From the NCBI GenBank assembly GCA_046539225.1, contig JBKHHG010000013.1, positions 1 through 20,300 of the forward strand: a stretch of 20,300 nt of DNA, given 5' to 3'. The stretch is from Candidatus Nanohaloarchaea archaeon (GTDB taxonomy: Archaea > Nanohalarchaeota > Nanosalinia > Nanosalinales > Nanosalinaceae). The position numbers were made by a program. Shown here one piece after another: positions 6,001 through 9,000 of this stretch; the first letter of the stretch is position 1, and each line of letters begins with the position of its first letter.

Positions 6001-9000
6001 AACGGCTTCAGCCTCCTCTTTACGTTCTTTTAACCCCATACCCATCACCGAGGACACATCATATATAAACCTTTCCACAGATCAAAACTTAAATCTCTTC
6101 TTCCTTAGAAGACTCGAAGGCCTGCTCTACAAGCCTTTCAAGGCCTATATACTTCTCAAGTTCCTCAAGCCTCTCAGGATCCATTGAAGTAGCGGGAGAA
6201 TCCGGAACCATTTTCTTACAGGCAGAGTCGATCTTCGAATGCTCAAAGGTGCCAATTCTACAGGCCTGCTCCTGGATATCAACCTTGTTTTCATTGAGCA
6301 AAGGCCTGAAAACCGGGAGATCCCGAGAAGAAGCAAAAAGATTCCGCGGAGTCTGGGACGACTTCTGATTGAAGGACTCGCCCGTCACAGTACCGTCAAG
6401 GCCTCTCTCCTCTCTAACCCGTTCAGCAACTTTAAACATCGCCCTCCTGTGCAGAACCATTCTACCCTTTTCAACACTGGAAAGAGCTTTGTTAACCTCT
6501 TCCATATCGACCAGAATATAACTCCAGTCCTTTCCTGGATGAAAACGCTTCAACTCTCTGACCACGGCCTCAAAACGCGCCAAGTGATCCTCAGCAGCGT
6601 AAGGCCTGTCATAAAAATAGATAGGCGTGACATCAAGGCCTCTCTTCAGGGCTTCAAAAGCAGCTACAGGCGAATCGATACCTCCGGAAATCATTGAAAG
6701 AACTTTGCCCTCTACACCGGCTGGAAGGCCTCCAGGACCTTCAAAACTGTCCTCGCTTGTAAAAACATGTGCATGATCTTCTGTAACCTCTGCCTTCAGC
6801 CATATACCAGGATCTTCGAGATCTACTTCTTCACCGGTCTCCTGCTGTACAAAAGAACCGATTTCTTCTTCCCAGTCCTGGCTTGAATCTTCAAGGCCTC
6901 TCAAGTTAATTCTGACTCCGAAAGAAGTATTGAAATCGAGGGGAAAAGCCTTTTTGACTTCTTCTATTTCAGGCCCTGTTTTTTCAGCGATTGAGCAGCT
7001 TTTGACGCCCGGCAGTTCCGCTACAACTCTGGAGTCGCGGACAGTATCCTCTACAGTTATCCTGCCGGGCTTTACAGCTACTTTGCCGTAATAAAGGCCT
7101 TCAAACTCAAGCTTGTCCTGCACGCGCTGCCTCAGGGTCTGGACAAATCTCTTCCTGACGTTGCCCTGTTTCTTGTGTATCTCACTGTACCTGACGACTA
7201 AATCCATTACTCCTGGATCTCAGCGAACGCGAACTTGTTGCCGACAGAAGTAACTTCCACCTCATAGGTCTCTCCGACCTCTGCACCGGGTACAAAGACT
7301 ACAAATCCTTCTACACGTGCGATTCCGTCTCCCTTGCTTCCAAGATCGTCGATCTCGACTTCGACAACATCTCCTTCACTGACCGGTTTATCGAAATCAT
7401 CTGAGGAATCTCCGCCGGACTCTTCCGCTGTATCTTCGGGTTCGGAGGCCTCTTCTTCTACTTCTTCGGCCTCATCGACTTCAGCGGTTTCTTCCATCTC
7501 CTGTTCTGGTTCTTCGGTTTCGTCTGCGTTGAACTCTTGACCTGCAAAATCATCTTCTTCTGTCATACGAAAATATTCACCTTAAAGTGTATAGAAACTA
7601 TAGTTCGGCAATCTTTAAAAAAGAGATTTTCTGGCAGGTCCAGACTTCAATAGTATTCTAAGAAATTTCTGCTCTAAGCACGAACATTGAGATTCGTGCG
7701 GTAACCAATCGCCAGCGACCGGATTAATGAACCAAACTTCTGAAAGTTTGATCATCAGATTGCATGGTTCAGAGAACCATGCGTTGCGTATCGATCGAGC
7801 GTAACCAATCGCCAGCGACCGGATTTGAACCGGTGAGGGGCGGGTATGCCCCAGCAGATCTCGAATCTGCCGCGTTCAACCAGACTCCGCCACGCTGGCA
7901 CAGCTTTTCAGACCTGTATAACTTTCAAGGCGAAAAGGCCTTTAAATAAATCGGAGAAGTTAATCTTGAAAGCCTGGATAAGTCTTTAGGCCTTGTAACC
8001 AATGCTTCAAAGGACAGTACAGATTTTTTCCTCGAAGAGTTTGGTCTGGAAGAAACTTTTGACTGTGTTGTGGCGCCGCCCCGCAAAGTCAGGGAACGAG
8101 TGGAAAAGAGAAAGCCGCATCCTCACATGTTAAACAAAGCAGTTGAATGTCTTGGGTCAGATAACCCTGTTTTCTTGGGCGACTCCATGAAGGACAGGTT
8201 GGCGGCGGAGAACGCCGGGGTAGAGTTTGTGAAGGTTGATGGAAATATTGCAAGTTTATTAAAGAAGTTCAACTGAATCCTGATTTATGCAGTATGATGC
8301 AGTTATTTTTGATATGGATGGTGTGATCCTGGATTCAGGCCTGAACAATTTTCAGTGGATGGATCAGATTCGGCGGAAGAAGGCCTCGCAGCTGGGATAT
8401 GATTACTCTGAGGATGATGCGATCCAGGTGGTGGGTGCCACGCAGATGTCTGAGCTGAAGGAGTTGATGGAGAGGAAAGAGATGTCCTTAAAGGAGGTCA
8501 AGGAGGTGGAGCAAAGGGTTCAGAACGCCAAGATCAGCCTGATCGAGCACGGGGCCATAAGGCTTTTCCCGGAGACTGAAAAAGTTTTAAGGGGGCTTGA
8601 CAGGCCTGTAGGCCTTGCGACCAACTCTCCGCGGAACACGGCCAGGTTCACGCTCCGGTACTTCGGCATCATGGATCTCTTCGATTCTTTCCAGGCCCTG
8701 CCTCTAAACGATCTTGAAAGCTACGTTGGAAGGAAGAAGCCTCATCCCTTCCTGCTGAACAACGCGATTGAAGAGCTTGAAGCCGAGAACCCTGTGATGG
8801 TGGGCGACACAAGGACCGATGTGAAGGCGGCGGAGAACGCGGGAATTGACTCTGTACTTGTTGAAACCTACTCGAAACACGACCACCTTGAACCCACGCA
8901 CAGGATCAGAAATATCGCCGAACTTAATTCATTGCTGAAATAAGGCCTCTGTTACCACCAAAAAGTTAAAAAGAACTGTCTTTTCTTTTCTCTTTATGAC

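Follow-up and report, generated by a model that had tools for sequence, protein, structure and literature searches.

The tRNA-Ser(CGA) gene on contig JBKHHG010000013.1 of a Candidatus Nanohaloarchaea archaeon (assembly GCA_046539225.1) is followed at once by a short hairpin motif, and the locus raises the question of what this motif belongs to and how it came to lie at the end of a tRNA gene. We analysed the window, the whole stretch of 20,300 nucleotides formed by positions 1 to 20,300 of that contig, and compared it with the rest of the genome and with motif matches in other DPANN genomes and metagenomes. An earlier note had described the motif as the mark of small elements embedded in tRNA genes. 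What that note missed is the defining anatomy of the element, a direct duplication of the target on both of its sides.

An 84-nt insert behind tRNA-Ser(CGA)

A sequence search of the window placed the motif at 7784-7811 on the minus strand, directly 3' of tRNA-Ser(CGA), where it had been reported. Its 23-nt core GGTTACGCTCGATCGATACGCAA (7784-7806, minus strand) is the sole match in the window at ≤2 mismatches, with 0.00 matches expected from 100 shuffles. The target gene (7810..7899, minus strand; 7809-7900 by ARAGORN) is complete and intronless, and scores 53.7 bits with the Rfam tRNA model. The first target copy, X1 (7810..7825, minus strand), runs from T-loop A58 to discriminator G73 and is part of the working tRNA; it is followed by the 84-nt element E1 (7726..7809, minus strand) and then by the second copy, X2 (7710..7725, minus strand), which repeats the last 16 nt of the tRNA, so that the minus strand carries two exact copies of this 16-mer, one at 7825-7810 and one at 7725-7710.

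E1 is composed of a head hairpin, a tail, second and third hairpins and a short 3' end, all on the minus strand. The head hairpin (7792..7811) consists of the 5-bp stem CGATT/GATCG, formed by 7807-7811 with 7792-7796, which closes the loop GGUUACGCUC (7797-7806); the first two bases of the stem are C72 and G73 of tRNA-Ser(CGA). The conserved tail GAUACGCAA (7784..7792), located by sequence search, leads to the second hairpin P2 (7762..7782), which has a 9-bp stem and a 3-nt loop, differs in sequence among copies and carries compensatory changes in 6 of 7 pairs among 26 T-loop relatives. The third hairpin, CAAACUU-UCAG-AAGUUUG (7733..7750), is a short module that recurs alone in many genomes of the family, with many 24-26-nt matches of 92-100% identity. 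The RNA fold of 7710-7811, which covers E1 with the two tRNA bases and X2, is predicted at -34.9 kcal/mol (z -3.6). The CUGAUGA word of this copy was considered as part of a hammerhead or a C/D box, but on inspection by eye both readings were rejected: the stem is not followed by GAAA, a D box is missing, and CUGAUGA sits in a module that is absent from the Woesearchaeota copies.

Beyond X2 lies the remnant of an older element (7652..7709, minus strand), which aligns with the split head of the Arg-UCG intron at C10:21893-21960. It retains the head start ATTGGTTAC at 7701-7709, followed by the extra domain of the split type (CGCA, a hairpin, GCUUAGAGCAG and a further hairpin), the remaining head being absent.

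The window copy is outside the mature tRNA, as it begins after discriminator G73 and the upstream tRNA is complete. A genome of the same genus (G007) has tRNA-Ser(CGA), then 117 nt and then the same downstream gene, with no element and a single tRNA 3' end. At the level of sequence, this comparison shows the window copy to be a lineage-specific 84-nt insertion behind tRNA-Ser(CGA), flanked by two 16-nt copies of the tRNA end.

Copies across the genome

Ten motif sites, 10 of 10 touching tRNA genes, had been counted in this genome, and motif search found the same sites again (C1, C2, C4, C10, C13, C27 and C34 denote contigs of this genome, the window being C13; signs give the strand). The intron copies are C2:664- in tRNA-Val (position 37/38), C2:77- in a CAU tRNA (split), C10:7385+ in tRNA-Thr and C10:21899+ in tRNA-Arg-UCG (split). 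Copies at tRNA 3' ends are C13:7806- in the window, C27:1009+ (Arg-UCU, split) and C27:4894- (Phe); a degenerate copy lies behind Ser-UGA (C4:11101-), and two antisense copies abut the 5' ends of two Ser tRNAs (C4:11392+ and C34:3878+). An extra match to the 10-mer at C1:34750- looks like chance and has no tail. ARAGORN mislabels the Val-GAC gene as Leu-UAA.

Two details of the earlier picture change. The supposed relic 3'-end copy behind Ser-UGA is actually a target duplication, and the split copies are not independent disruptions but belong to one subfamily, marked by an additional domain of two hairpins whose position is fixed, a type also present in another nanohaloarchaeon (L048). The nested domain begins right after GGTTAC in two copies.

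Structure and covariation of the head

Pairing counts bear out the proposal that the head stem covaries. Across 243 scorable pattern matches from two collections, 179 pair at 5/5 stem positions and 16 at 4/5, and among 26 T-loop copies 99.2% of the hairpin cells are paired, two of the five pairs showing double changes. Independent stem changes are few because five variants account for most matches (CAACT 87, CAAAT 49, CGACT 29, CAATT 6 and CGATT 5), and with so few variants the match counts include related copies. G-U pairs are common in the conserved helices, at 8/26 and 10/26 for two positions. No Rfam 15 family reached its gathering score over the element in the window and 20 loci; at a permissive threshold (E 5-10) in 23 loci, again none fell over the element, and only tRNAs, rRNAs and chance sub-threshold matches were returned.

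Target duplications in other genomes

The survey comprised 195 stem-forming matches in other DPANN genomes and metagenomes, 182 of them testable for duplication and 100 left without a context class; 48 pattern matches that form no stem served as a control set of chance matches. As the earlier note had held, the family spans DPANN lineages, with matches across several phyla. The target-element-target layout was found in 42 of the 182 testable stem-forming matches versus 0 of the 48 stemless ones (Fisher p 3e-5), with duplications of 15-79 nt that are perfect copies in 15 cases. The idea that the motif marks small inserted elements holds, but the elements are not bound to tRNA genes as such: all copies of this genome lie in or against tRNA genes, yet other genomes also have the head at the starts of protein genes, within a MITE and at an rpl6/rpl32e junction.

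The 38 non-redundant duplication cases strike many different targets, and duplications occur at protein-gene starts and operon junctions as well. The head-side junction is precise, with a 0-2 nt overlap in 24 of the 38, while the opposite end varies and may include donor flank. Among 10 D-loop insertions the duplication starts ≤4 nt from the first base of the tRNA in 8, including all 7 whose copies are 100% identical; in 12 of the 19 3'-end duplications inspected by eye, the first duplicated base falls at T-loop positions 57-60. At four protein-gene starts (L016, L077, L159 and L173) the duplications begin 0-3 nt from a candidate in-frame ATG, and the L159 insert contains a second head along with a tRNA 5' fragment, much as a read-through copy from a donor locus would. 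L116 has a 92-nt element with a perfect 45-nt duplication at the rpl6/rpl32e junction, which is uninterrupted in the present genome (C15:~5995) and serves as its empty site. An apparent 28-nt element at L216 proved on reading to be a tandem pair of elements. Compared at the sequence level, these loci show that the same head opens target-element-target inserts at many unrelated sites of other genomes.

Intron copies and the splicing motif

T-loop context was assigned to 53 of the 195 stem-forming matches versus 0 of the 48 stemless ones, and these 53 are bulge-helix-bulge introns by prediction. In 26 T-loop copies fitted to the hBHBh' motif, the outer helix (h) is paired in 85% of cells, the central helix (H) in 81% and the inner helix (h') in 85%, all pairing measures being above slid-partner controls. 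The inner helix is formed by the 5' strand of the head stem and the adjoining GGUU, which pair with the 3' end of the intron. The stretch that had been called an invariant loop is the loop of the head hairpin in the window copy but is not a loop everywhere: in intron copies GGUU, its first four bases, is predicted to be paired. Within this genome, the Val intron has H 3/4, h 5 and h' 8, the Arg-UCG intron has H 4/4, h 5 and h' 3, and the Thr intron fits only the relaxed hBHBh' form. Counts from a general BHB finder were discarded as too permissive, since 65 of 115 loci scored positive, bacterial chance matches among them. From this pairing, the element in tRNA T-loops and anticodon loops is shown to be a predicted bulge-helix-bulge intron whose own 3' end would complete the inner helix.

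Shared ('transposed') families of bulge-helix-bulge tRNA introns in Thermoproteales were reportedly described by Fujishima et al. in 2010; to our knowledge, flanking duplications have not been reported for them. Unlike those families, the DPANN element also occurs outside introns and at protein genes with long target duplications, which are insertion footprints, and its head is almost invariant across several phyla. Shared Thermoproteales families are also described in bioRxiv 10.64898/2026.10.13.758758, and the likeness is that related short introns recur in different tRNA genes and positions and persist only where the splicing motif can form.

Proposed mechanism

The motif is best explained as the 5' head of a family of mobile elements in DPANN archaea that are small, about 30-160 nt, and non-coding, and we give this whole explanation, including the route proposed here, a probability of roughly 0.55. 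That these are a mobile element family seeding introns is very probable. Spread by copy and paste via a single-stranded copy, most likely RNA, and thus by an RNA-templated route, is a tentative part of the explanation, with odds somewhat short of even. RNA processing would set the 5' end of the copy at the head, and the copy would then attach, through joining or template switching, to 3' ends and loops that host transcripts expose, with N73, the D-loop, position 37/38 and the T-loop as candidate landing points. Copying would run into the host RNA up to its 5' end or a modified T-loop, giving the edge of the duplication, and the product would recombine at the homologous gene. Copies landed in loops would persist if the splicing endonuclease can excise them, and those near gene ends may persist because the duplication restores the gene.

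The duplications usually stop at the tRNA's own end, which suggests that host RNA ends may define their edges. Further hints of an RNA copy are the start points of the duplications given above for D-loop, 3'-end and protein-gene insertions, the G-U pairs of the conserved helices and the read-through look of the L159 insert. Reaching the gene end is also what selection for intact genes would favour, but such selection does not predict a stop there. Single-stranded DNA of a tRNA gene offers the same loops, so loop preference cannot separate RNA from DNA. Speaking against an RNA route, reverse transcriptase is missing from most carriers: PF00078 was absent from four of five element-rich genomes and present in 7 of the 50 genomes of the family, with only 2 of these among the 13 motif carriers, in a screen of incomplete genomes (G000 is 82% complete). 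In addition, an orientation antisense to the host gene is seen at L012, L090, L215, C4:11392 and C34:3878.

SINEs and processed pseudogenes are made by target-primed reverse transcription, template-switch chimeras included. Like SINEs, the DPANN element is non-coding and non-autonomous, with duplications of variable length, microhomology at one junction, one precise and one variable end, and adjacent sequence carried along. Unlike SINEs, it has its constant end at the 5' side and lacks an A-rich tail, the genomes screened revealed no reverse transcriptase partner for it, and its duplication edges lie at host RNA ends.

Another version of the RNA route, which we regard as doubtful, makes the element an 'archaeal introner' whose movement through RNA needs no canonical reverse transcriptase. 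Here tRNA-processing enzymes would release the element RNA with the head as its exact 5' end, and this RNA would reach loops and 3' ends of host RNAs by ligation or template switching, with tRNA fragments, tRNAs without CCA and 5' pieces of mRNAs among the acceptors. A host polymerase would copy the chimera into DNA, which would then be placed at the homologous gene, and tRNA fragments would define the duplicated segment. Introners are transposable elements that create eukaryotic spliceosomal introns (PMC9860276). The likeness is a mobile element that turns into an intron on insertion because the splicing machinery of the host is able to excise it; the DPANN element differs in that splicing would be by a protein endonuclease acting on RNA shape, in that its hosts are tRNA genes and in being much smaller.

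Alternative explanations

The strongest rival, although unlikely, is a DNA-level non-autonomous transposon, MITE-like or one-ended, which would be cut or copied at the head hairpin by a nuclease or transposase acting in trans and inserted at staggered breaks 15-79 bp apart, the duplication arising by fill-in. Target duplication and the precise end fit such an element, reverse transcriptase is unnecessary and antisense copies pose no problem. The hairpin with its invariant loop, together with the repeated word TACGC, may parallel the sites that single-strand DNA nucleases recognise, and IS1634-type insertion elements have long, variable duplications. The element also rides in a true MITE of G001, which has TIRs and 8-bp duplications and whose short and element-bearing copies, a further empty-site comparison for the insertion, differ by a 129-nt element in a hairpin loop. 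Like MITEs, the DPANN element is short, non-coding, multi-copy and inserted between genes; unlike them, it has no terminal inverted repeats in target-element-target copies (L116, L154, L199 and the window copy), and its duplications of 15-79 nt are not of a fixed short length. Around 10 copies in G001 no shared neighbour gene was seen, and 2.9 million viral contigs gave 0 pattern matches. A DNA transposon leaves unexplained that duplications stop at tRNA or transcript ends, and that loop insertions, judged from the G001 MITE comparison, lack a long duplication. Contigs of four DNA runs yielded no usable insertion polymorphism, giving nothing beyond breaks of the graph at the repeats and one joint that 'goes back 100' in a single low-depth contig.

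A vertically inherited, non-mobile RNA signal that serves the host, whether a processing, termination or small-RNA module co-transcribed with tRNAs, would account for the strong sequence conservation across DPANN phyla, for the covarying hairpins and for the sense orientation of most copies to the host gene, and dicistronic tRNA-sRNA precursors are known in Nanoarchaeum. We nevertheless consider it highly unlikely: the motif is found in just 13 of 50 genomes of the family and in 0 of 4 other genomes of the genus, whose orthologous tRNA lacks it, and at protein-gene starts it is flanked on both sides by duplicated halves of the start. Reading of the head sequence revealed neither C/D nor H/ACA boxes, although no search aimed at such boxes was made, and no Rfam family was matched.

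Scars of integrase-type integrative plasmids or viruses carrying the end of the target gene (attL, remnant, attR) merit very little weight, even though the duplicated segment spans the insertion point to the gene end as att sites do, tRNA genes are classic targets and tandem arrays occur (L007, L011 and L055). Such a model was published for tRNA gene disruption in Caldiarchaeum (PMC3293823). The likeness to the present elements lies in the layout, where an insert separates a complete tRNA from a partial copy of it, in the tandem arrays and in the links to intron gain. These elements are, however, just 30-160 nt long with no gene, ORF or recombinase, and in every case the same short head adjoins the left copy. 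Conservative site-specific recombination has no means of duplicating a new target, yet there are 38 non-redundant cases with many targets; viral contigs held no match. Unlike tRNA-targeting integrative elements, the DPANN inserts are about 100 nt, carry no recombinase gene and have dozens of distinct targets, with fresh duplications at non-tRNA sites. Casposon or Cas1-like integration, considered for the tRNA 3'-end targets, was rejected on the lack of inverted repeats and the unfixed duplication length, and an IS200/IS605-type or REP/RAYT hairpin element, which combines subterminal hairpins with a short target word that is fixed and leaves the target unduplicated, on the varying left flanks and long duplications.

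Implications

No description of this element family was found in the literature, a search with sequence words giving only unrelated primer matches. The family bears on how archaeal tRNA introns reach new positions, as one recognisable sequence is seen in three states: a fresh insertion whose footprints are intact, a tolerated gene-end passenger and a predicted spliceable intron of T-loops and anticodon loops. These three states, together with several DPANN phyla and matched empty sites, make intron birth testable, including which insertions turn into introns, what fixes the duplication edges and which enzymes move the element. For annotation, duplicated tRNA ends and multi-intron genes mislead tRNA finders, and ARAGORN called a tRNA beside the motif in only 23 of 121 matches. 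If the introner reading is true, the element would represent a general route for the birth of archaeal tRNA introns.

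An 84-nt insertion behind tRNA-Ser(CGA)

The window carries a complete tRNA-Ser(CGA) gene on the minus strand (7810–7899, Rfam 53.7 bits; 7809–7900 by ARAGORN), followed directly on its 3' side by the head, a conserved hairpin motif plus tail that comprises the stem CGAUU/GAUCG (7807–7811 with 7792–7796), the loop GGUUACGCUC (7797–7806) and the tail GAUACGCAA (7784–7792), and then by a 9-bp hairpin (7762–7782), all on the same strand. The stem opens with two bases that belong to the tRNA, C72 and G73. The 23-nt core has a single match in the window at up to two mismatches, with 0.00 expected from 100 shuffles. 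The head opens an 84-nt insert, E1 (7726–7809, minus), and the last 16 nt of the tRNA gene (AATCC...GGCG) are present twice, exactly, at 7825–7810 and again after E1 at 7725–7710. Behind this second copy stand the initial 9 nt of a further head (7701–7709, minus), which is interrupted by an extra domain identical in kind to that which splits the head of the Arg-UCG intron on contig C10. From the second tRNA-end copy and the broken second head, the sequence of the locus reads as tRNA, element, relic tRNA end and older broken element, and E1 as a recent insertion that duplicated 16 nt of its target. The earlier note correctly placed the motif behind the tRNA and missed both the insert and the second tRNA end.

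The hairpin CAAACTTTCAGAAGTTTG (7733–7750, minus) corresponds to a 24–26-nt word that many genomes of the family contain at 92–100% identity and that this genome repeats at other places (C21:8275 and C37:2995); it is seen in both orientations and appears to be a tiny repeat module in its own right. The window also contains a 5S rRNA gene (11775–11888, minus, Rfam 72.8 bits).

Other copies in the genome

All 10 sites of the motif claimed previously were recovered in the 607-kb, 38-contig genome, each of them inside or next to a tRNA gene, and the observation is thereby confirmed. The earlier interpretation was right in part and too narrow: what the motif marks is the head of a mobile mini-element. 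The copies at the Arg-UCU and Phe 3' ends (contig C27) share the layout of the window locus. Relic 3' or 5' tRNA copies also surround inserts that lack a head, at Leu-UAA (C4), Arg-GCG (C11), where the last 44 nt of the insert are common to the Arg-UCU element, and Tyr-GTA in the window. The latter gene (17391–17465, minus) is flanked on both sides by relics of its own termini (region 17317–17523, minus): a 23-nt copy of the 3' end (17317–17339) after a 51-nt insert, and a 16-nt copy of the 5' end with one mismatch (17508–17523) before a 42-nt insert. Downstream of tRNA-Ser(UGA), C4:10990–11240 (minus) holds two partial relic T-arm/3'-end copies with hairpin inserts between them and then a degenerate head; at least three insertions are stacked here.

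Heads are split at fixed places by two kinds of extra two-hairpin domain (window 7652–7700, minus; C10:21905–21960; C27:1026–1075; C2:10–58; and L048, a locus from the pattern scans). The first follows GGTTAC and has the form CGCA-hairpin-GCTTAGAGCAG-hairpin, and the second, TACGAAAACC...CTAGAGCAG..., stands ahead of GAYACGCAA. Since the second kind was found in another nanohaloarchaeon too, the split heads are subfamilies.

Distribution

Of the 50 genomes of the family, 13 contain the exact core, as do 11 of its 21 genera; the four other genomes of the genus all lack it. Copy number in the family is 1–5 per genome, with the window genome highest at five exact copies (10 with variants); element-rich Woesearchaeota genomes have 7–15 exact copies. 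The stem variant is lineage-specific (genome G003, for example, has seven copies, all CAAAT), consistent with spread within genomes. Among the matches listed, carriers are by record title Woesearchaeota, Nanoarchaeota, Nanohaloarchaea, Asbonarchaeaceae and one 'ainarchaeum'; about 16 further MAGs among them, labelled 'uncultured Methanosarcinales archaeon' (L012–L118), bear the same T-loop introns as Woesearchaeota, and these labels are probably wrong. The pattern had 0 matches in 2.9 million viral contigs.

Empty sites and flanking duplications

Comparison with empty sites argues that motif-headed stretches are insertions. In the same-genus genome G007, a tRNA-Ser(CGA) gene 92% identical to that of the window is followed by 117 unrelated nt that contain neither a head nor a second tRNA end, and then by the same downstream gene with the same first codons; the element is likewise absent from G010, also of the genus. 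On a related nanohaloarchaeal contig (L116), a 92-nt element with the same head separates two 45-nt copies, perfectly identical, of the junction between the rpl6 end and the rpl32e start; in the window genome that junction is unbroken (C15:~5995). The Woesearchaeote G001 harbors a MITE family (L119–L128, L274–L279) of ~160–210 nt with TIRs of the GTAAGTAAAAAG type (~118 matches to the TIR word) and 8-bp target duplications. It occurs in two forms, one short and one whose 5-bp hairpin holds a 129-nt element in its loop, where at most 1–3 nt are duplicated; about 15 of its copies bear the head-carrying element in the hairpin loop.

Pattern scans gave at least 118 loci and at least 121 hits in 185,579 species genomes, and at least 120 loci and at least 123 hits in metagenomes. 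Among the matches listed from both, 195 hits pair at four or more of five stem positions, 48 do not, and one lies at a contig edge; the 48, mostly bacterial or 6-N spaced chance matches, served as controls. Flank duplications were called at z >5 against shuffles, score ≥12 and an end within 15 nt of the head. Among the matches listed, sequence left of the head is repeated right of the element in 42 of the 182 stem-forming hits with enough flank versus 0 of 48 controls (Fisher p 3e-5), over 15–79 nt at 83–100% identity. The word GGTTCRA directly precedes the head, which places it in a tRNA T-loop, in a further 53 of the 195 listed stem-forming hits versus 0 of 48 controls (p 3e-6). The remaining 100 include 37/38 introns, MITE-borne copies, 3'-end copies with no detectable second copy and contig-edge cases. 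For only 23 of the 121 hits listed from the genome scan did ARAGORN call a tRNA beside the motif.

Removal of identical loci left 38 duplication cases. The left copy ends 0–2 nt into the stem in 24 of these, the overlap at tRNA 3' ends typically being the shared CA or CG of C72-N73, and 4–11 extra nt separate it from the head in 11. The far end of the element is not conserved. The shortest elements (~50–65 nt, for example L154) consist of the head, a second hairpin and the short conserved word GCUCACUUCGUUCGC. An element can carry donor sequence, as at the protein-gene start L159 (head, tRNA 5' fragment and second head), and the L199 element contains a second, decayed head.

Ten sense D-loop insertions, placed by ARAGORN in the tRNA 5' part, enter at gene positions 15–19, and their duplications begin within 4 nt of the first tRNA base in 8 of 10, including all seven with 100% identical copies. 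Insertions at 3' ends enter at N73; read by eye, the exact repeat starts at positions 57–60 (T-loop) in 12 of 19 such cases, 49–53 in six and 62 in one. At protein-gene starts (L016, L077, L159, L173) the duplication starts 0–3 nt from a candidate in-frame ATG, at L154 and L057 it starts at the stop codon of a gene on the other strand, and at L209 immediately behind the stop codon that ends the same-strand gene upstream. That a duplication must reach the gene end follows from selection for gene integrity, which leaves unexplained why it stops there. The insertion points (D-loop, 37/38, T-loop 59/60, N73 and the MITE hairpin loop) are single-stranded in the host RNA.

The element as a predicted intron

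Elsewhere the same element is a spliceable intron, as predicted from its bulge-helix-bulge (BHB) motif. Of 30 T-loop loci in the genome set, 26 were aligned (A1; L039, L040, L102 and L111, truncated or aberrant, were left out), and their exon-intron borders form a textbook BHB motif. The outer helix is the T-stem (85% of cells paired), the central 4-bp helix pairs UUCA with UGAA (81%), and the inner helix pairs the head 5' strand and GGUU with AAYCAnnnG at the intron 3' end (85%, with eight double changes at one pair), all above slid-partner controls. The local hairpin described previously is kept even better in these 26 copies (99.2% paired, double changes at two of five pairs), and the second hairpin has compensatory changes at six of seven pairs. 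Since the local hairpin and inner helix both covary, the head 5' strand has two alternative partners. G-U pairs are common (at two positions, 8 and 10 of 26), which means that the constraint bears on this strand in single-stranded form. A1 columns 84–106 hold a second conserved word, GAGCUCACU..UCGUUCGCA, resembling a direct repeat of the head's GCUC...UACGCAA, with A/G and U/C co-changing between two positions.

In the window genome, the Val intron (central helix 3/4, outer 5, inner 8) and the Arg-UCG intron (4/4, 5 and 3) form the motif, and the Thr intron gives only a loose fit. The gene at C2:555–707 (minus), a tRNA-Leu(UAA) with a position-35 intron according to ARAGORN, proved on manual reading to be tRNA-Val(GAC), its 79-nt intron at 37/38 being the element.

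Comparison with known systems and mode of movement

We found no published description of the element in the literature, supplementary files aside. Among published cases, the shared intron families of Thermoproteales come closest; they have been interpreted as intron transposition and are described in an Asgard preprint (bioRxiv 10.64898/2026.10.13.758758). Unlike the head-bearing element, those families are not known outside introns. Eukaryotic introners behave in a conceptually similar way (PMC9860276). The insertion footprints resemble those of retroposed SINEs, and the gene-end duplications resemble integrase att sites and the Caldiarchaeum disruption model (PMC3293823). The element fails the defining tests of a MITE and of an integrative element, fails as a SINE for want of a partner enzyme, and matches no Rfam family.

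Insertion is copy-and-paste-like: the end on the head side is constant, the far end varies, and a segment of the target is duplicated. We tentatively favor an RNA intermediate, at a probability of roughly 0.4. The head would be an RNA 5' end produced by tRNA processing, cut by the splicing endonuclease at introns and by a 3'-end nuclease behind N73. The element RNA would then be joined to a host RNA, whole or fragmentary, at its 3' end, or a polymerase would switch from the element RNA onto that end, and copying would run to the host RNA's 5' end or stall at a modified T-loop; modified bases at positions 57/58 block copying. The product would recombine at the homologous gene. Counted against an RNA intermediate are the existence of antisense copies, the absence of reverse transcriptase from four of five element-rich genomes and the lack of association between enzyme and motif in the family (7 of 50 genomes with the enzyme, 13 with the motif and only two with both). 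Antisense copies and the missing reverse transcriptase better fit a somewhat less probable DNA route, in which a nuclease or transposase would act at the hairpin and make staggered breaks. A purely host-serving RNA signal and, marginally less plausible still, integrase scars are poor fits and improbable. How the element moves is the point of interest.
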